Both the position numbers and the translations under genes were made by a program. This document shows positions 668 to 12,019 of a stretch of 64,000 nt of DNA, in pieces. The stretch covers positions 13,420 to 77,419 of the forward strand of contig JACRMP010000015.1 in the NCBI GenBank assembly GCA_016214885.1, read 5' to 3'. Numbering within the stretch: the stretch's first letter is position 1; each line of letters opens with the position of its first letter. This DNA is from Candidatus Gottesmanbacteria bacterium (lineage in GTDB: Bacteria; Patescibacteriota; Microgenomatia; UBA10105; UBA927). The notes under the pieces are model-generated. The model saw only the letters and a program-made list of their open reading frames with translations. It did not search any database and had not been told where the DNA came from.

Positions 668-1066
668 ATGTTTGTAAAATTATATTTTCTGACACTTCCT
701 GTTTTTTTCGCCATTGATCTGTTGTGGCTAGGTGTGGTGGCAAAACAATTTTACGGAAAATATCTGGGGTTTCTCATGAGTCCCTCTCCGAACTGGGCGG
801 CCGCGGTTTTATTTTATCTGCTGTTTATCGCGGGGCTTGTTTTTTTTGTTATACAGCCAGCTGTTGAGCGGGGGCAGTGGGGGTATGCGTTGGGAGCAGG
901 CATATTCTTCGGGCTTATTACATATGCTACCTATGATCTGACGAACCTTGCGACAATTAAGCAGTGGCCGTTTATTGTGACTGTCGTGGATCTAATGTGG
1001 GGCATGGTGTTATCGGGAAGTGTTTCGGTTATCGCATTTTTTGCCGCCCGGAGGATAGGGATGTGA
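668..1066 (+). CDS. small polytopic membrane protein (about 4 TM, possibly DUF2177-like)
   Basis: 132-aa hydrophobic ORF. Its stop overlaps the next gene start (ATGTGA). Confidence 0.4.
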   Translation: MFVKLYFLTLPVFFAIDLLWLGVVAKQFYGKYLGFLMSPSPNWAAAVLFYLLFIAGLVFFVIQPAVERGQWGYALGAGIFFGLITYATYDLTNLATIKQWPFIVTVVDLMWGMVLSGSVSVIAFFAARRIGM

Positions 1067-1839
1067 ACGGATATTTTTTCCTGTTTGTTGCGGTGTGCGT
1101 TTATATGTCTCTTTGGTTTGTGATTTCCCTTGTGACGAGACGCAATGATGTCGCGGACATTGCCTGGGGATTGGGATTTGTCGGTTTGTCTTGGGTGGGG
1201 TATGCGTTATCTCCCTACCAGACCTTGCCTGCGTTATTTACCACTTTGCTTGTTACTTTGTGGGGTATTCGATTGTCGTGGCATATTTTCCAGCGGAACC
1301 GTAGAAAACCGGAAGATTACCGGTATAAAGCGTGGCGTGATCAATGGGGGTCATGGTTTTATCTCCGTTCATTCCTGCAGGTATATCTTCTGCAGGGAAC
1401 ACTGCTTTACCTTATCGCGCTACCGGTAACGTATCAACATATGGTCAGGGCTTCTGGCGACTTTACGATATGGGACGGCATCGGATTTTTATTATGGGCG
1501 ACAGGGTTTTGTATGGAAGCGGTTGCTGATCAACAGCTGCGCAATTTTATTTCCCACCCCGAGAACAAAGGGAAAATAATGATGTCAGGGTTATGGCAAT
1601 ACAGCAGGCATCCCAATTATTTTGGTGAAGTATTGCAATGGTGGGGTATATATTTGTATGCAGTATCAGTCCCGGGAGGACTTCTTACGGTAATAGGACC
1701 GATTACCATTACGTTTCTTATATTATTTGTTTCGGGTATTCCTCTGTTGGAGAAGAAATATGTGGGGCGCCAGGATTTTGCCCGTTATGCGCGCCAGACC
1801 AGCATATTTATTCCGCTGCCCCCGCGGCGTATTTCATGA
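1063..1839 (+). CDS. DUF1295 / steroid-5-alpha-reductase / ICMT-like membrane protein
   Basis: Multi-TM protein with an RHPNYFGE motif near the C-terminus. GTG start overlaps the upstream stop, and its own stop overlaps the next start (ATGA). Confidence 0.55.
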   Translation: MNGYFFLFVAVCVYMSLWFVISLVTRRNDVADIAWGLGFVGLSWVGYALSPYQTLPALFTTLLVTLWGIRLSWHIFQRNRRKPEDYRYKAWRDQWGSWFYLRSFLQVYLLQGTLLYLIALPVTYQHMVRASGDFTIWDGIGFLLWATGFCMEAVADQQLRNFISHPENKGKIMMSGLWQYSRHPNYFGEVLQWWGIYLYAVSVPGGLLTVIGPITITFLILFVSGIPLLEKKYVGRQDFARYARQTSIFIPLPPRRIS

Positions 1840-2348: not shown

Positions 2349-3536
2349 TTGTATAATTTGCGTTCAGCGTTTTATAATCAGCGTTATATGAATAGCGAAA
2401 CAAAACTTTTTGCCGGTATTATCGCAGCAACGTTTGTCATTATTGTAGGGGCAGCATTTTTTTTCAGCAGACCGACTAATGCCCCGAAAGTAGACCCCAA
2501 ATTATTAGTTGCAGAGGACAGCTACAAATTCGGTTCACCGTCGGCGACCGTCACCCTTGTGGAATTCGGCGATTTCCAATGCCCGGCATGCGGTGCATAC
2601 CATCTGGTCGTCAAACAACTGTTGGATAAGTACAAGGATTCACTTAGTTTAGTATTCCGGCATTTCCCCCTCAATATCCATCCAAATGCAATGCCCGCTT
2701 CCATAGCGGTAGAGGCTGCGGGTAAACAGGGTAAGTTCTGGGAAATGTATAACAAAATATACGAAAGCCAAAACGCCTGGTCATCGGAAAAGAATACAGT
2801 AAATATTTTTTCTGAGTACGCCCAGGGCTTAGGACTCAATGTCGAACAATTTAAAAAAGATCTGGAGGATAGTACACTCCGGAAAAAGATTGAACGCGAT
2901 ATGGCAGATGCGGCAAAGCTTGGTATAAATTCGACGCCGTCGTTTTATCTTAACAACGAAAGGATCCAGAATCCGGCAAGCCTGGAGGATTTTGAGACGC
3001 TCATTAAAGCGGCTATTCTCAAAGCCCCGAAACCGGAAATTTCCAGCGAAGGAGCCTATCATGCACATGCGGATATCCGTGTTGTTCTCGAGGGGAAACC
3101 CGTTGATTTTAGCCAGAGCAAATACCAGTCCAAGGAAGGCGCTGAGTTAAATGAATTTATACACTTCCATGATGGGGTAGGGAGTATATTTCATATACAT
3201 AAAAAGGGAATGCTCCTTAAGGATCTGTTCGGATCTTTGGGGATGACGCTTACCAAGGACTGTCTGACCACTGACACGAAGCAAACCTACTGCACAACAG
3301 GAGATAAAACGCTCAAGCTGTATGTCAATAATAAAGTGAGCACGTTAAATGAAATGTTTGAGCCGCAGGATCTGGACCGTATCCTCATAAGTTATGGCAC
3401 TGAAACCGGTCCGGCATTTGTAAGCCAGCTTGAAAGCGTTTCTGATGACGCATGCATCTATTCGGAGAAGTGCCCAGAGCGGGGAACCCCGCCAACTGAA
3501 GAATGTGTCGGCGGATTGGGAACAGACTGCAAATAA
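2349..3536 (+). CDS. DsbA-family thiol:disulfide oxidoreductase with a ~170-aa His/Cys-rich C-terminal extension
   Basis: N-terminal TM anchor. Thioredoxin-fold signature FGDFQCPACG...FRHFPL...GKFWE...GINSTPSFYLN, then a tail rich in HxH, HFHDG, HIH and Cys pairs. Confidence 0.7.
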   Translation: MYNLRSAFYNQRYMNSETKLFAGIIAATFVIIVGAAFFFSRPTNAPKVDPKLLVAEDSYKFGSPSATVTLVEFGDFQCPACGAYHLVVKQLLDKYKDSLSLVFRHFPLNIHPNAMPASIAVEAAGKQGKFWEMYNKIYESQNAWSSEKNTVNIFSEYAQGLGLNVEQFKKDLEDSTLRKKIERDMADAAKLGINSTPSFYLNNERIQNPASLEDFETLIKAAILKAPKPEISSEGAYHAHADIRVVLEGKPVDFSQSKYQSKEGAELNEFIHFHDGVGSIFHIHKKGMLLKDLFGSLGMTLTKDCLTTDTKQTYCTTGDKTLKLYVNNKVSTLNEMFEPQDLDRILISYGTETGPAFVSQLESVSDDACIYSEKCPERGTPPTEECVGGLGTDCK

Positions 3537-6693: not shown

Positions 6694-7113
6694 CTATTTC
6701 TCCTCTCTGACAGAGATTTTCTTCGGCTGCGCTTTGGGGGATTTGGTGAATGTCACCGTCATTACCCCATTTTTTACCGTGGCTGCCGGTTCCTGATTGG
6801 GATCGATGTCTCCCGGTACGGCGACGCGGTACGAAAATGAGCCAGCGGCTTTGCGGTAGAATTTTTTGTTCTTTTCTTCCGTTTTGGATTCGCCTTTTAT
6901 CCAGACAACTCCGTGGTCTACCGTTACTTCGATGTCCTGGGGATCGACGCCAGGAACTGCCGCCTGGACATAGATACTTTTCTCATCTTCCGAGAGCGAT
7001 AAGCCGCTCGGCCAGTTGGTTACTGCTCCCCAGTCTTCGTCATCTTCCCATAAGGCGGGCAGTGACGGGAGCCGGAAGTAGGAACGGGGAATTAAGTCAG
7101 TCATGTGTCTCAC
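6694..7113 (-). CDS. Hsp20/alpha-crystallin family small heat-shock protein
   Basis: 139 aa with alpha-crystallin domain pattern (AVPGVDPQDIEVTVDHGVVWIKGE...GSFSYRVAVPGDID). Strong SD sequence AAAGGAGGTG. Confidence 0.85.
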   Translation of the reverse strand: MRHMTDLIPRSYFRLPSLPALWEDDEDWGAVTNWPSGLSLSEDEKSIYVQAAVPGVDPQDIEVTVDHGVVWIKGESKTEEKNKKFYRKAAGSFSYRVAVPGDIDPNQEPAATVKNGVMTVTFTKSPKAQPKKISVREEK

Positions 7114-7249: not shown

Positions 7250-8020
7250 ATGAAAGAAACACCAGTTGCCCCGCAGCCAAGATGGATAATGGTCTCACTC
7301 GTCGGTCTTCTTATGGTAGCCTCATTTCTTGTAGGATCACTCTATACAAAAGTGCAGTATCTTGAAGCAGGCGGAGCGCCGGCCGGAGGAGTAGCAGCAA
7401 AATCCAAGTATAAAACATTCGACGAGGCTATGACGGCATTGGCTAAAGATGCCAAACTTGATGCCAAGAAGCTTGTTTCGTGCATGAATAGCGGAGAAAA
7501 GAAAGCTGTTGTTGACGCGGAATCAGCAGAGGCTGCAGCTGTAGATGTAACCGGTACTCCTGCGTTTTTTATAAACGGTAAGCTACTGGGCGGAGCATTC
7601 CCGTTTGAAAGCTTTAAGGAAGTCATCGATAAAGAGCTTGCAGGAACCGGGTCAGAAAAAGTAACCGATTATTCCCAGACACTGCAGGATGCTAATAAAA
7701 GCGGCGCCTTTGATCCTAAGCCAAGAACGCTTACGATCGGTACTTCCAGCAGTAAGGGAGCGGATAAAGCACCCATAACCATTATTGAATTTTCTGATTT
7801 CCAGTGTCCGTTCTGCAGCAGGGCACACCCGACAGTCAAGCAGGTACTTAATGAGTACAAGGATAAAGTAAGATTTGTGTATAAACATATGCCGCTTGTG
7901 AGTATCCACCCGCGCGCGCATATCACCGCCCAGGCGGCTGAATGTGCCAAGGATCAGGGGAAGTTCTGGGAATTTCATGACCAGCTCTTCGAGAAGCAGA
8001 CCGATTGGTCGTCACTCTAA
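7250..8020 (+). CDS. DsbA-like thioredoxin-fold protein with apparently circularly permuted domain order
   Basis: N-terminal TM anchor. Residues ~60-130 match the C-terminal half of a DsbA domain (...VTGTPAFFINGKLLGG). The C-terminal part carries the N-terminal half (FSDFQCPFCS...FVYKHMPL...GKFWEF) and ends soon after. Start could be 7208 or 7250. Confidence 0.55.
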   Translation: MKETPVAPQPRWIMVSLVGLLMVASFLVGSLYTKVQYLEAGGAPAGGVAAKSKYKTFDEAMTALAKDAKLDAKKLVSCMNSGEKKAVVDAESAEAAAVDVTGTPAFFINGKLLGGAFPFESFKEVIDKELAGTGSEKVTDYSQTLQDANKSGAFDPKPRTLTIGTSSSKGADKAPITIIEFSDFQCPFCSRAHPTVKQVLNEYKDKVRFVYKHMPLVSIHPRAHITAQAAECAKDQGKFWEFHDQLFEKQTDWSSL

Positions 8021-8023
8021 AAC

Positions 8024-9058
8024 TTAAAATAGTTCTTCCTGTTGTTTTTTGGTGGGAGTTTTTCCCAGGTGGGCAAATGCTGAAGCGGTGGCAGATCTGC
8101 CACGGGGAGTGCGTTTCAGAAAACCTACCTGCATAAGGTATGGTTCCAGCACATCTTCTACTGTGCCGATGTCTTCAGAAAGTGCTGCAGCAAGTGTTTC
8201 TATTCCCACCGGACCGCCTGAAAATTTATCGATAAGAAGGGTGAGCAGTCTTCTGTCTGAGTTATCGAGTCCTACACTATCTACTTCATAGAGCGTAAGT
8301 GAGTGGGTAAGAATAGGCATATCAATTTTCCCGTTGCCCTCAACTTGTGCCACATCGAGCACCCGCTTGAGGAGCCGTAATGCTATCCGGGGAGTGCCCC
8401 GGCTGCGTTTGGCAAGTTCTTTCCTGGCTGTTGCGTCGAGTTCAATATCCAGTTTTTTGGCGGCTCTGGCGAGTATGTTTTCTATATCCGCGGGTTCATA
8501 AAAAGAAAGCCGGGCAACTACGCCGAAGCGGTCACGCATAGGACTGGAGAGAAGCCCCACCCGGGTGGTAGCGCCAATTATGGTAAACGGGGGAAGATCA
8601 AGGCGCAGTGTTTTGGCAGCAGGTCCTTTGCCCAGCACTATATCGAGTGCATAATCCTCCATGGCAGGATAGAGTGTTTCTTCTACCACCTTATTAAGCC
8701 TATGGATTTCATCGATAAATAAAATATCGTTGGGTTCAAGGTTAGTAAGTATTGCCGCAACATCTCCCGCGCGCTCAATGGCGGGGCCTGAGGTTACCCG
8801 GACATTAACACCAAGCTCTTTGCCGATAAGGTGCGCCATAGTGGTTTTACCAAGCCCCGGAGGTCCGTACAGGAGAATATGTTCAAGCGGCTCTTTGCGC
8901 TTTTTAGCTGCGGCAATAGCTATGTGGAGCGTGCGTTTAACCTGCTCCTGCCCGGCGAATTCCGGCCAACTGGCTGCTCTGAGGGAGACTAATAAGTTCT
9001 GCTCCTCGGGAGTTACCGTGGTTTCCAGAATATGTTCCGAAGGATTTGCTTTTTTCAT
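8024..9058 (-). CDS. ruvB: Holliday junction branch-migration helicase RuvB
   Basis: AAA+ Walker A GPPGLGKTT, FIDEIHRL and the RuvB C-terminal winged helix. Confidence 0.95.
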   Translation of the reverse strand: MKKANPSEHILETTVTPEEQNLLVSLRAASWPEFAGQEQVKRTLHIAIAAAKKRKEPLEHILLYGPPGLGKTTMAHLIGKELGVNVRVTSGPAIERAGDVAAILTNLEPNDILFIDEIHRLNKVVEETLYPAMEDYALDIVLGKGPAAKTLRLDLPPFTIIGATTRVGLLSSPMRDRFGVVARLSFYEPADIENILARAAKKLDIELDATARKELAKRSRGTPRIALRLLKRVLDVAQVEGNGKIDMPILTHSLTLYEVDSVGLDNSDRRLLTLLIDKFSGGPVGIETLAAALSEDIGTVEDVLEPYLMQVGFLKRTPRGRSATASAFAHLGKTPTKKQQEELF

Positions 9059-10219: not shown

Positions 10220-12019
10220 GTGATGCCAAAGAAATTATTTATGTGGAAATGGGATATCCTCACCGTGCTGTGGGGTATATGGCTACTCACCATTATTTTA
10301 TTTTGCGTATTCATTATATATGCGTATCTCGTTGGCGCTGCAAAAATACCCCGGTTAGTTACAGACGCCTTCATACAAACAGCAATATTGGTTGATATAA
10401 CCGCAGGAGGAATTGCATTTGGGCTACTCGTATTCGTCGGTCTTTACCGGGTGTTCCTTAAAAGCAATATTGTCCGCGCGGGAAGCCCCGGTGCCATGGG
10501 AGTTATTTCATCTTATGTCCGGTATAGCGGTATACTGCTTATACTCCCGCTGTATCTTTTTTTCCGTCTCCTGAATCTGCCGAAGTTTATAGTACTTATC
10601 AGGACAAATAAACTCAGCTTAATACGGCCGGGATCGGTAATAAAACGGGTCGCCGAAATAATCACCGTCATTCTTATACTTCTTCCTGTTTGGATGGGTG
10701 TTTATTATCTCGCTGGATACGCCGTAGTAAATGCATTGGGATATGTCGCTGAGCCGCAGGCAATTTCAGGAACTGGATCCATGTATCCGACATTTCCCAA
10801 AGGAGAGGGTGATGATAAATTGGCATTATCCAAACAAGTGGTCGGTACTCCGGGAATGTTCCGGTATCCCAATGGATTGGTGGCTTTCGGCAAAAGATAT
10901 TTCGGGTATGAGCTGGGAAGAGGGGATATCGTCGTAGCGGAAAACAATGAGATCAGGGAGCGAACCCGGGAAACCTACGGCGAACCGGGTGGCTGGGTGA
11001 AACGGATTATCGGACTCCCGGGCGACACGCTGGAGCTGCGCAGCGGAACCGTATACCTTAACGGTGAGCCGATGAGGGAGAAATACACTGCCAAGCCCCA
11101 GTCTACCTTCGGCCAGGCATTTTTAGGGGAATGTAAAAAAATAACCGTTCCGGAAAATTCCTTATTCCTTATGGGCGATAATAGAAAAGGAAGCGGTGAT
11201 TCACGGGATATGGGGTTTGTCGGGGTTAATGCCGTTAATCACGTTATCCCCCTCAAAAGCCAGATCGGTGTGCTGGATCACGGATGGCGCGATACGGCTG
11301 CTGACTTTGATGACACAAATAAAATACGGCTGGATGTGGAGGAATATATCAGACTTCTCAACGAGAAACGGAGGGAAGCAGGAGTCAAGCCGGTTTCGTA
11401 TCAGGCAAAACTTGCTATATCAGCTGAGAAGCGCGGGGAAGTAATGCTCAAATACGACGATTTTTCCTTTGAAGCGACCCGCAGCGGCTATACAATGTCC
11501 GACGCCATGCGGGATGCAAATTACTCCAATATTGTTTGGGGCGAAGCGCCAACACTAGGGTATTATGAAGCGGAGGAGCTCATAGAAAATCAGTTTCAGT
11601 TTCCGGAATCCAAAAAGTTTTTGCTTGATGCTACGTTCCAGGATGTGGGGGTAAGTGAAGTTGTTGGTGCCATAAACGGGTGCCCCACCCAGGTTATCGT
11701 GGCGCATTTTGCCGGCTATGTGCCGCCTAATTATACGAAAGAAGTGGTGGACTCATGGAAGCTCGCCCTTACCCGGCTTATGGAGATACAGCCGGGGTGG
11801 AATAGTCTCACTAACGTGTTTTCCGTGTATGATGCCCATAAAGAGGAAGTAAACCGCATGAACGAAATCATCGCCATACGGATAACGAATATCCGCAGTA
11901 TTGTATCCAGGATGGAAGCAAACCAATGGCTTACGGCGGAGCAGAATGCATTTATACGTATTGATGAACAATTAGCCAAAGAGCAGGATTCATTGGCCAC
12001 AAAATTGAACAGTTACTGA
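10220..12019 (+). CDS. lepB: signal peptidase I (S26) with polytopic N-terminal region and C-terminal CAP/SCP (YkwD-like) domain
   Basis: ~170 aa holding 4-5 TM segments. S26 boxes SMYPTF (catalytic Ser), RGDIVV, GDNRKGSGDSR. C-terminal ~230 aa has a CAP-domain-like pattern (...VIVAHFAGY). Confidence 0.7.
   Translation: MMPKKLFMWKWDILTVLWGIWLLTIILFCVFIIYAYLVGAAKIPRLVTDAFIQTAILVDITAGGIAFGLLVFVGLYRVFLKSNIVRAGSPGAMGVISSYVRYSGILLILPLYLFFRLLNLPKFIVLIRTNKLSLIRPGSVIKRVAEIITVILILLPVWMGVYYLAGYAVVNALGYVAEPQAISGTGSMYPTFPKGEGDDKLALSKQVVGTPGMFRYPNGLVAFGKRYFGYELGRGDIVVAENNEIRERTRETYGEPGGWVKRIIGLPGDTLELRSGTVYLNGEPMREKYTAKPQSTFGQAFLGECKKITVPENSLFLMGDNRKGSGDSRDMGFVGVNAVNHVIPLKSQIGVLDHGWRDTAADFDDTNKIRLDVEEYIRLLNEKRREAGVKPVSYQAKLAISAEKRGEVMLKYDDFSFEATRSGYTMSDAMRDANYSNIVWGEAPTLGYYEAEELIENQFQFPESKKFLLDATFQDVGVSEVVGAINGCPTQVIVAHFAGYVPPNYTKEVVDSWKLALTRLMEIQPGWNSLTNVFSVYDAHKEEVNRMNEIIAIRITNIRSIVSRMEANQWLTAEQNAFIRIDEQLAKEQDSLATKLNSY

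Follow-up and report, generated by a model that had tools for sequence, protein, structure and literature searches.

A DsbA-like protein with swapped domain halves from Candidatus Gottesmanbacteria, very probably a natural circular permutant

We analyzed a stretch of 64,000 nucleotides from Candidatus Gottesmanbacteria (contig JACRMP010000015.1 of assembly GCA_016214885.1, positions 13,420 to 77,419), here called the window, with the focus on the gene at window positions 7250 to 8020, which encodes a DsbA-like protein. An earlier reading of the letters alone, the sequence-only reading, had claimed that the two halves of the DsbA domain stand in swapped order in this protein, and had proposed either a natural circular permutant or a trimmed remnant of a DsbA-DsbA tandem. 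Our analysis points with considerable confidence to a natural circular permutation of the DsbA fold that is conserved and yields a folded protein.

Layout of the gene and conservation of its permuted order

The open reading frame (ORF) runs on the forward strand from an ATG at 7250 to a TAA at 8018-8020 and encodes 256 amino acids, and the start (MKE...) is shared by its homologues in the alignment. A scan for promoters and terminators gave no signal above the shuffled expectation. The gene contains the following features:

7250..8020, + strand: complete permuted DsbA-like gene (ORF list and sequence; Pfam matches in swapped order)
7280..7366, + strand: N-terminal membrane anchor and conserved juxtamembrane helix, residues 11-39 (AlphaFold2 helix, hydrophobic segment)
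7367..7402, + strand: flexible tether rich in Gly and Ala, residues 40-51 (low model confidence, variable length in the alignment)
7403..7642, + strand: C-terminal half of the DsbA domain, residues 52-131 (DSBA profile; envelope 52-131 of the half-domain hidden Markov model, HMM)
7481..7483, + strand: codon of Cys78, first member of an extra cysteine pair (invariant in alignment A1)
7556..7561, + strand: codons of Thr103-Pro104, cis-Pro loop (invariant in A1; TP in 128 of 128 permuted proteins)
7643..7741, + strand: linker between the ancestral C- and N-termini, residues 132-164, 33 amino acids (model and alignment)
7742..8017, + strand: N-terminal half of the DsbA domain, residues 165-256 (Thioredoxin_4 profile and model)
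7805..7816, + strand: codons of the active site Cys186-Pro-Phe-Cys189 (read from the sequence; both cysteines invariant)
7943..7945, + strand: codon of Cys232, second member of the extra cysteine pair (invariant in the alignment)

The half that comes first, the ancestral C-terminal half (C-half), comprises helices a4-a6 of the helical insert, the cis-Pro loop, strands b4-b5 and helix a7. The ancestral N-terminal half (N-half) with strands b1-b2, the CxxC-bearing helix a1, strand b3 and helices a2-a3 comes last, with the end of the chain in the a3/a4 loop. In the Pfam scan, the whole protein matched Thioredoxin_4 (E-value 1.3e-29; 103.9 bits with a curated cut-off of 23.2) and DSBA (2e-19; 70.6 bits with a cut-off of 25.6), each in two stretches, which is far from anything expected by chance. 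Positions 121-190 of the 191 positions of the DSBA profile correspond to residues 58-126, and positions 4-94 of the 165 positions of the Thioredoxin_4 profile to residues 165-254. The hallmarks of the family are thus present, namely the profile score, the CxxC at the start of helix a1, the T-P before strand b4 and the insert helices. The canonical order, in which the N-half (b1-b2-a1-b3-a2-a3) precedes the C-half (a4-a6-b4-b5-a7), is reversed, which makes the protein a homologue with permuted topology outside the canonical membership.

Three neighbouring genes were used for reference or context:

2349..3536, + strand: DsbA-like neighbour in canonical order, outside the permuted gene and used as a reference only (Thioredoxin_4 match)
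6694-7113, - strand: divergent hsp20 upstream (HSP20 Pfam match)
8024..9058, - strand: convergent ruvB, context only (ORF list; RuvB_N/AAA Pfam matches at the equivalent place of the syntenic relative L087)

In the DsbA-like neighbour, Thioredoxin_4 positions 7-165 correspond to residues 60-221 in a single stretch. BLASTP aligned residues 158-255 of the permuted protein to residues 50-146 of this neighbour (45% identity, E-value 3e-28) and residues 88-126 to its residues 181-219, so that the swapped order that had been claimed from the letters was confirmed by both Pfam and BLASTP. When the sequence was un-permuted by joining residues 158-256 to residues 47-134, it aligned with canonical domains along its entire length. 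The only gaps at the junction were surplus residues on the side of the permutant, mostly tether residues included in the join, which means that no part is absent and that the halves sum to exactly one domain. In agreement with this, the two half-domain HMMs found exactly one C-half and one N-half and not the two complete domains of a tandem, and the gene is flanked by an intergenic region beside hsp20 upstream and by the ruvB stop downstream.

The sequence-only reading had used the neighbour at 2349-3536 as a complete DsbA reference. Its canonical order stands, and the TTG at 2349 is only the mechanical start of the ORF. Residues of about 222-395 of this neighbour form a C-terminal extension of about 170 amino acids with a Cys-rich tail, ...DDACIYSEKCPERGTPPTEECVGGLGTDCK, that has no Pfam match. 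The syntenic counterpart in L087 has 383 amino acids with DsbA Pfam matches only.

A homologue search covered 5.8 billion proteins, and the figures given here refer to its 120 best matches, the architecture of which was classed with the two half-domain HMMs (C-half and N-half) made for this analysis. In 115 of these matches, a C-half is followed by an N-half without other domains, and the remaining five are tandem proteins. The permuted order is therefore found in the orthologues, with which the sequence-only reading had suggested a comparison, and tandem proteins occur only among the more distant relatives, with identities of about 43% or lower. Apart from three N-terminally truncated fragments among the 115, the permuted homologues have 235-312 amino acids. 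Their identity to the query is 52-96%, and those with a source name are labelled as Candidatus Gottesmanbacteria or Patescibacteria. Their C-termini fall within a few residues of one shared position in the alignment, and 113 of 128 permuted proteins terminate exactly where the envelope of the N-half HMM ends.

C186, C189, T103, P104, C78, and C232 are invariant in alignment A1, and the CxxC motif as well as the TP of the cis-Pro loop were retained in all 128 permuted proteins. In the anchor region of A1, L20, L21, G29, L31, T33, K34, V35, and L38 show little or no variation. The linker, which ranges from 11 to 40 amino acids across permuted proteins, holds a short conserved helix with the motif DYSQxLQxA ... 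GAFDPKP, in which Y141, L145, A148, F154, and P156 are nearly invariant; this segment is deleted in P0096, P0107, and P0110. In the comparison with the syntenic relative L087 (80% identity), the proportion of nonsynonymous differences (pN) was 0.07-0.08 in each of the two halves and rose to 0.16 in the linker, and that of synonymous differences (pS) was 0.64-0.85 across the segments and hence at or near saturation. Low pN at saturated pS is a sign of strong purifying selection and indicates that the permuted gene is kept under such selection.

As a side aspect, the juxtamembrane sequence GSLYTKVQYLE after the membrane helix is near-invariant across the permuted proteins of Microgenomates and recurs in Levyibacteriota (GSLYTKNQYLEQG) and Woesebacteria (GVLWQKVQYLEKGG). 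This conservation is unusually high for a plain anchor and may mark a contact site.

With respect to the gene end, the sequence-only reading had placed the last codon 4 nucleotides from the convergent ruvB stop. The convergent arrangement is correct, the two stop codons (8018-8020 and 8024-8026) lie 3 nucleotides apart, and the proximity turned out to be irrelevant. In another Gottesmanbacteria genome, the P0078 gene has a different neighbourhood without ruvB, and its protein ends at the equivalent residue. In L087, 59 nucleotides separate the gene from ruvB, and the end residue is unchanged. We therefore rejected ruvB as the cause of a truncation. Downstream of the P0078 gene, at about 6800-11700 of L002/L003, about 5 kb are nearly devoid of called genes except for an ORF of a LAGLIDADG homing endonuclease; this stretch looks like a putative rRNA operon with an intron-encoded endonuclease.

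As tandem DsbA-DsbA proteins exist that align over the C-half, the linker, and the N-half of the query, and as the gene ends 3 nucleotides from the ruvB stop codon, the gene might have been a decaying remnant, i.e., a tandem that was truncated at both ends at this locus and that left two non-functional half domains. However, more than 110 clusters share the architecture and the end point at 52-96% identity and in varied gene contexts, the catalytic residues are invariant, pN is about 0.07 at saturated pS, and the exactly complementary halves gave a confident single-domain model (see below). Decay at this locus is therefore effectively refuted by conservation, and we assign it next to no probability.

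Predicted fold and the extra cysteine pair

AlphaFold2, for which we used an alignment of 50 sequences of permuted homologues, generated one compact domain with a mean predicted local distance difference test score (pLDDT) of 93.7, a predicted template modelling score (pTM) of 0.80, and pLDDT values of about 97-98 for residues 51-256. The sole low-confidence part was the Gly/Ala tether (residues 40-51), with a pLDDT below 50 at residues 42-46. The disorder that the sequence-only reading had considered as a possible outcome was thus not predicted. The first part of the model consists of the helices (H) and strands (E) H11-39, H57-67, H72-81, H85-97, E105-108, E111-114, and H119-131, with the two strands immediately following T103-P104. 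It is followed by the linker helix H143-150 (pLDDT about 97) and by the second part with E167-170, E176-182, H187-206, E207-213, H223-235, H239-248, and H250-253, in which C186-P-F-C189 lies at the start of the helix 187-206. The helical insert is complete (H223-235, H239-253, H57-67, H72-81, and H85-97), and the chain termini lie inside this insert. As modelled, the protein follows the DsbA fold but starts at helix a4 and comes full circle to a3.

When the model was compared with the PDB using Foldseek, the engineered permutant 1UN2 came out on top, far ahead of all others, with 207 aligned columns, an E-value of 6e-5, and a template modelling (TM) score of 0.61 normalised to the target. Natural DsbAs that aligned well (BdbD, C. 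diphtheriae DsbA, TsdA, and others, at a root-mean-square deviation of about 3 Å) covered about 85-100 columns, which is one half, and the longer alignments lower in the list had deviations above 10 Å. We also modelled P0288 from the archaeal-type permutants, which form a subfamily of their own, on the basis of an alignment of 8 sequences. With a pLDDT of 70.9, this model is usable for topology only, and its elements follow the same order as those of the window protein. Foldseek again placed 1UN2 first (193 columns, E-value 3.8e-5), and the topology of the two models is identical to that of 1UN2.

With the chain order of the window protein (a4-a6, cis-Pro loop, b4-b5, a7, 33-residue linker, b1-b2, CPFC-bearing a1, b3, and a2-a3), the two halves would pack within one chain into a single ordinary DsbA fold, the termini of which would lie in the a3/a4 loop.

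The extra cysteines C78 and C232 deserve attention in this context. Permuted proteins had equivalents of both in 125 of 128 cases, and the three others had no C78 position and are probably N-terminally truncated fragments. Among canonical-order domains, 104 had both, 578 neither, and 2 just one, in a sample that consisted mostly of metagenome-assembled genomes (MAGs) of Myxococcota and that therefore biases the enrichment figure for the pair. The tandem proteins P0099, P0106, P0111, and P0114 bear the pair in both domains, and the DsbA-like neighbour at 2349-3536 lacks it. This all-or-none co-occurrence argues for a disulfide, and C78 and C232 probably form a structural bond that links the new chain ends. 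It would join the helix 72-81 near the new N-terminus to the helix 223-235 near the new C-terminus and would thereby tie the two new terminal segments to each other.

The co-variation contacts on which AlphaFold2 relies are blind to the difference between packing within and between chains, and encounters of the window protein with the neighbouring DsbA would be likely, since both have an N-terminal hydrophobic segment. In principle, the C-half could therefore complement the N-half of another chain, or a half of another DsbA-like protein, in a domain-swapped dimer or oligomer. We consider this very improbable, as the linker of 11-40 amino acids seems always long enough to span the ancestral termini, the monomer model reached a pTM of 0.80, and the conserved C78/C232 pair suits an intramolecular staple. 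The engineered cpDsbA reportedly has a short linker and was crystallised with its monomeric global fold preserved.

Redox role, distribution and origin

The protein has a detectable N-terminal hydrophobic segment and has kept all catalytic hallmarks of the DsbA type. As K2 and R11 precede the hydrophobic core, an N-in topology is to be expected, in which the membrane helix and the flexible Gly/Ala tether would hold the catalytic domain outside the cytoplasm and the cell. C. diphtheriae DsbA, TsdA, and B. subtilis BdbD act as oxidases. Similarity to the Gram-positive-type C. diphtheriae DsbA (4PWO, which has the same CPFC motif) and to B. subtilis BdbD suggests that the permuted protein is likewise a likely extracytoplasmic thiol-disulfide oxidase. 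C186 and C189 would then oxidise cysteines of secreted and membrane proteins and would be re-oxidised by a membrane quinone-linked partner of the DsbB or VKOR type that is encoded elsewhere.

A candidate partner arrangement was seen in the archaeal-type subfamily, where the contig L033 of a Woesearchaeota MAG carries a DsbB-family gene two genes away from the permuted gene, in divergent orientation and with a gene for a protein with six transmembrane (TM) helices in between:

L033 ~1864-2403, - strand: DsbB/BdbC-family gene (motif NPCVLCWYQR; Pfam DsbB, E-value 4.5e-14)
L033 2686-3207 and L085 8170-8682, + strand: protein of about 170 amino acids adjoining the archaeal-type permuted gene (CxxC in a hydrophobic stretch)

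The L033 copy of the 170-residue protein has six predicted membrane helices and the motif PGCATCG but no Pfam match; the L085 copy has ACPGCFVG, with no Pfam match on record. This uncharacterised CxxC protein could be a membrane redox partner, and L033 is a compact candidate locus for disulfide formation in a DPANN archaeon.

The permuted fold may also be genuine and serve another purpose, as a reductase, an isomerase, or a specialised factor (ScsC-like metal resistance or cytochrome maturation) that is kept reduced by a protein of the CcdA/DsbD type. A canonical-order DsbA-like protein is encoded 4 kb away in the same genome, ScsC-type and DsbG-type proteins were among the weaker structural and sequence matches, and the conserved six-TM neighbour of the archaeal subfamily, with its CxxC inside a helix, could conduct reductant. 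However, the closest characterised relatives by sequence are C. diphtheriae DsbA (4PWO), TsdA, and B. subtilis BdbD, a DsbB-family gene lies near the archaeal-type permuted gene, and a crude screen of the window found no multi-TM ORF with CxxC of the CcdA/DsbD kind. Such a non-oxidase role is therefore unlikely in our view, although clearly less so than a domain swap.

The architecture is found well beyond Gottesmanbacteria. A scan of genome contigs used one genome per species, and the taxonomic distribution of the matches listed is a sample and no census. Among the matches listed, the best had 51% identity, none of the close homologues of the protein search was present, and permuted proteins came from Levyibacteriota (L005), Woesebacteria (L022), Kerfeldbacteria (L012), Saccharibacteria (L062), an unclassified Patescibacteria MAG (L009), a Dehalococcoidia MAG (L019), the Woesearchaeota MAG (L033), and two MAGs labelled as Gammaproteobacteria (L006, L007). 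The proteins of these lineages consist of a membrane helix, the C-half, a linker of 11-40 amino acids, and the N-half, and they end just past the FWExHDxxF helix. A search seeded with the archaeal type found 8 permuted clusters, including the query's own, and these share the N-terminal motif TITIKKDDLWKYST, a linker of about 12 amino acids, and the ending ...FxEGV. The permuted architecture is thus not rare in sequence databases, and the view of the sequence-only reading that a natural permutant would be rare for DsbA proteins had to be given up.

The two proteins labelled 'uncultured Gammaproteobacteria' (L006 3971-4798 and L007 3983-4762) are permuted DsbAs with 42% identity to the window protein and grouped with the window clade of Gottesmanbacteria-like and Levyibacteriota sequences in 73 of 200 bootstraps. 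This points either to doubtful taxonomic labels or to a gene transfer.

Among the proteins without permutation, two-domain NCNC proteins (N and C denoting the halves) are the closest relatives, and NCNC as well as NCNCNC arrays are abundant. Arrays of 3-6 DsbA domains (500-1200 amino acids) head the search of representatives (P0121-P0270), in which the three-domain NCNCNC form accounts for 111 of the 150 top entries; as arrays sum their domain scores and fill the list, this shows the abundance of arrays and not the number of permuted clusters. In the genome loci (L008-L084), arrays of 3-6 domains were, among the matches listed, mostly from Myxococcota and Chloroflexi MAGs. This abundance of tandem-array relatives is consistent with duplication followed by trimming at both ends. 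Moreover, the C-half of L009 is nearer to domain 1 and its N-half clearly nearer to domain 2 in three of the five tandem proteins compared, which is the resemblance that duplication and subsequent trimming at both ends predict. A tandem DsbA array trimmed in this way is therefore the most plausible origin, and descent from such arrays has good support. Both parts of the alternative that the sequence-only reading had formulated, a natural permutant or a trimmed tandem, hold in this respect, since the protein is conserved, selected, and modelled as one fold and most plausibly descends from a tandem array. NCN and NCNCN forms were examined as intermediates and rejected, because they were contig-end fragments, had a divergent C-half, or had a disrupted or unresolved 3' end.

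When a neighbour-joining tree of un-permuted domains (70 sequences and 169 columns) was bootstrapped, a single clade of all permuted proteins occurred in none of the 200 replicates. L019 grouped with Chloroflexi tandem domains, apart from the other permuted proteins, in 195 of 200, and the archaeal-type permutants grouped with canonical or tandem domains, apart from the window clade, in 173 of 200. Tandem arrays would then have lost their first N-half and their last C-half probably more than once, in different lineages. As the basis for this is short sequences and a distance method, we regard recurrent emergence of the permuted architecture as evenly balanced with a single one. A further-reaching scenario is doubtful, though somewhat less so than the non-oxidase role: several independent natural permutations (in Microgenomates, in a joint group of DPANN archaea and Saccharibacteria, in the Kerfeldbacteria/Woesebacteria pair, and in Dehalococcoidia), each at the break loop that is viable in the laboratory and each with a stapling disulfide, might have been adaptive by attaching the membrane tether to the helical insert instead of the thioredoxin core, which would re-orient the active site to another membrane partner, e.g., the six-TM CxxC protein.

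Several points weigh against the overall picture of an intramolecularly folded, disulfide-stapled oxidase derived from a tandem. AlphaFold2 cannot tell intramolecular packing of the predicted fold from a domain-swapped dimer with equal contacts. The cysteine pair is absent from the alignments of the four closest solved homologues (4PWO/4PWP and 7UNN/7UNO). A crude screen of the 64-kb window for ORFs with at least three TM segments and a CxxC revealed no DsbB-like or VKOR-like ORF, and the Pfam scans covered 10 ORFs of the window. Finally, it is domain 1 of the available tandem proteins that both halves of the window subfamily resemble, and not the combination of domain 1 for the C-half with domain 2 for the N-half.

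Further observations concern other parts of the window. The ORF at 10220-12019 (+) encodes 599 amino acids, with a signal peptidase S26 domain confined to residues 159-338, a long N-terminal membrane region, and a C-terminal part of about 260 amino acids without Pfam match; its syntenic counterpart in L087 has 596 amino acids and a single S26 match. The ORF at 964-1839 (+) encodes a membrane protein that resembles DUF1295 proteins and steroid reductases and overlaps an ORF of 235 amino acids (1638-2345) without Pfam match. This region (964-2345) sits between a DUF2177-like ORF and the DsbA gene, L087 has nothing there, and it may be an insertion in the genome of the window.

Comparison with known DsbA systems

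The enzyme DsbA is a classic both of disulfide formation and of engineered circular permutation. Searches of the open-access full-text literature, including that on the thioredoxin fold and on DsbA of Patescibacteria or the Candidate Phyla Radiation, turned up engineered DsbA permutants but no natural one, and NCBIfam has no model for the permuted architecture, its best match being a canonical family below the cut-off. Within the open-access literature, a natural DsbA permutant thus appears to be undescribed, and the protein appears to be a new topological variant of a well-known family. Domain annotation yields two partial matches or the name 'thioredoxin domain-containing' for such proteins, and a sequential structure search sees half a fold, so the disulfide-bond machinery of Patescibacteria and DPANN archaea may be mis-described.

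By sequence, the closest solved proteins are C. diphtheriae DsbA (4PWO/4PWP), TsdA (7UNN), and B. subtilis BdbD (3EU3), with E-values from 1e-14 to 2e-16. These Gram-positive-type DsbAs share the (S/G)DF(Q/E/K)CPxC region, the GTP cis-Pro loop, and the helical insert with the window protein; the active site is CPFC in the C. diphtheriae proteins and CPSC in BdbD. They differ in their canonical N-half/C-half order, and each covers only one half of the model (82-92 columns).

The tandem DsbA-DsbA proteins (P0099, P0106, and P0111; 410-415 amino acids) are similar in another way, as the alignment of the query runs in one stretch from the C-half of domain 1 through the linker into the N-half of domain 2, with 42-45% identity over 74-77% of the query. 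In contrast to the permutant, which amounts to one domain, they have at least two complete domains, and their inter-domain linkers are rich in Pro and Ala and not conserved. As the databases still hold tandem arrays, two-domain proteins, and permutants, this family offers a clean case of the duplication-and-trimming route, possibly with repeated arising of one break point.

PMC13552848 and PMC11348275 cite a random-permutation study of DsbA by Hennecke, Sebbel and Glockshuber (1999). The engineered E. coli variant cpDsbA_Q100T99 (1UN2), which goes back to that work, has the same connectivity as the window protein, with a start after helix a3 and an end after a2-a3, and no other PDB entry aligns with the two models from end to end (207 and 193 columns). 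It differs in that it was man-made from a Gram-negative periplasmic DsbA and has 18% identity, whereas the natural protein belongs to the Thioredoxin_4/BdbD-like branch and adds a membrane anchor, a linker that is longer and in part conserved, and the extra cysteine pair. This pair suggests the rule that a disulfide may offset a chain break inside a helical bundle. A widespread natural permutant with the connectivity of a crystallised engineered one ties laboratory folding studies to real evolution.

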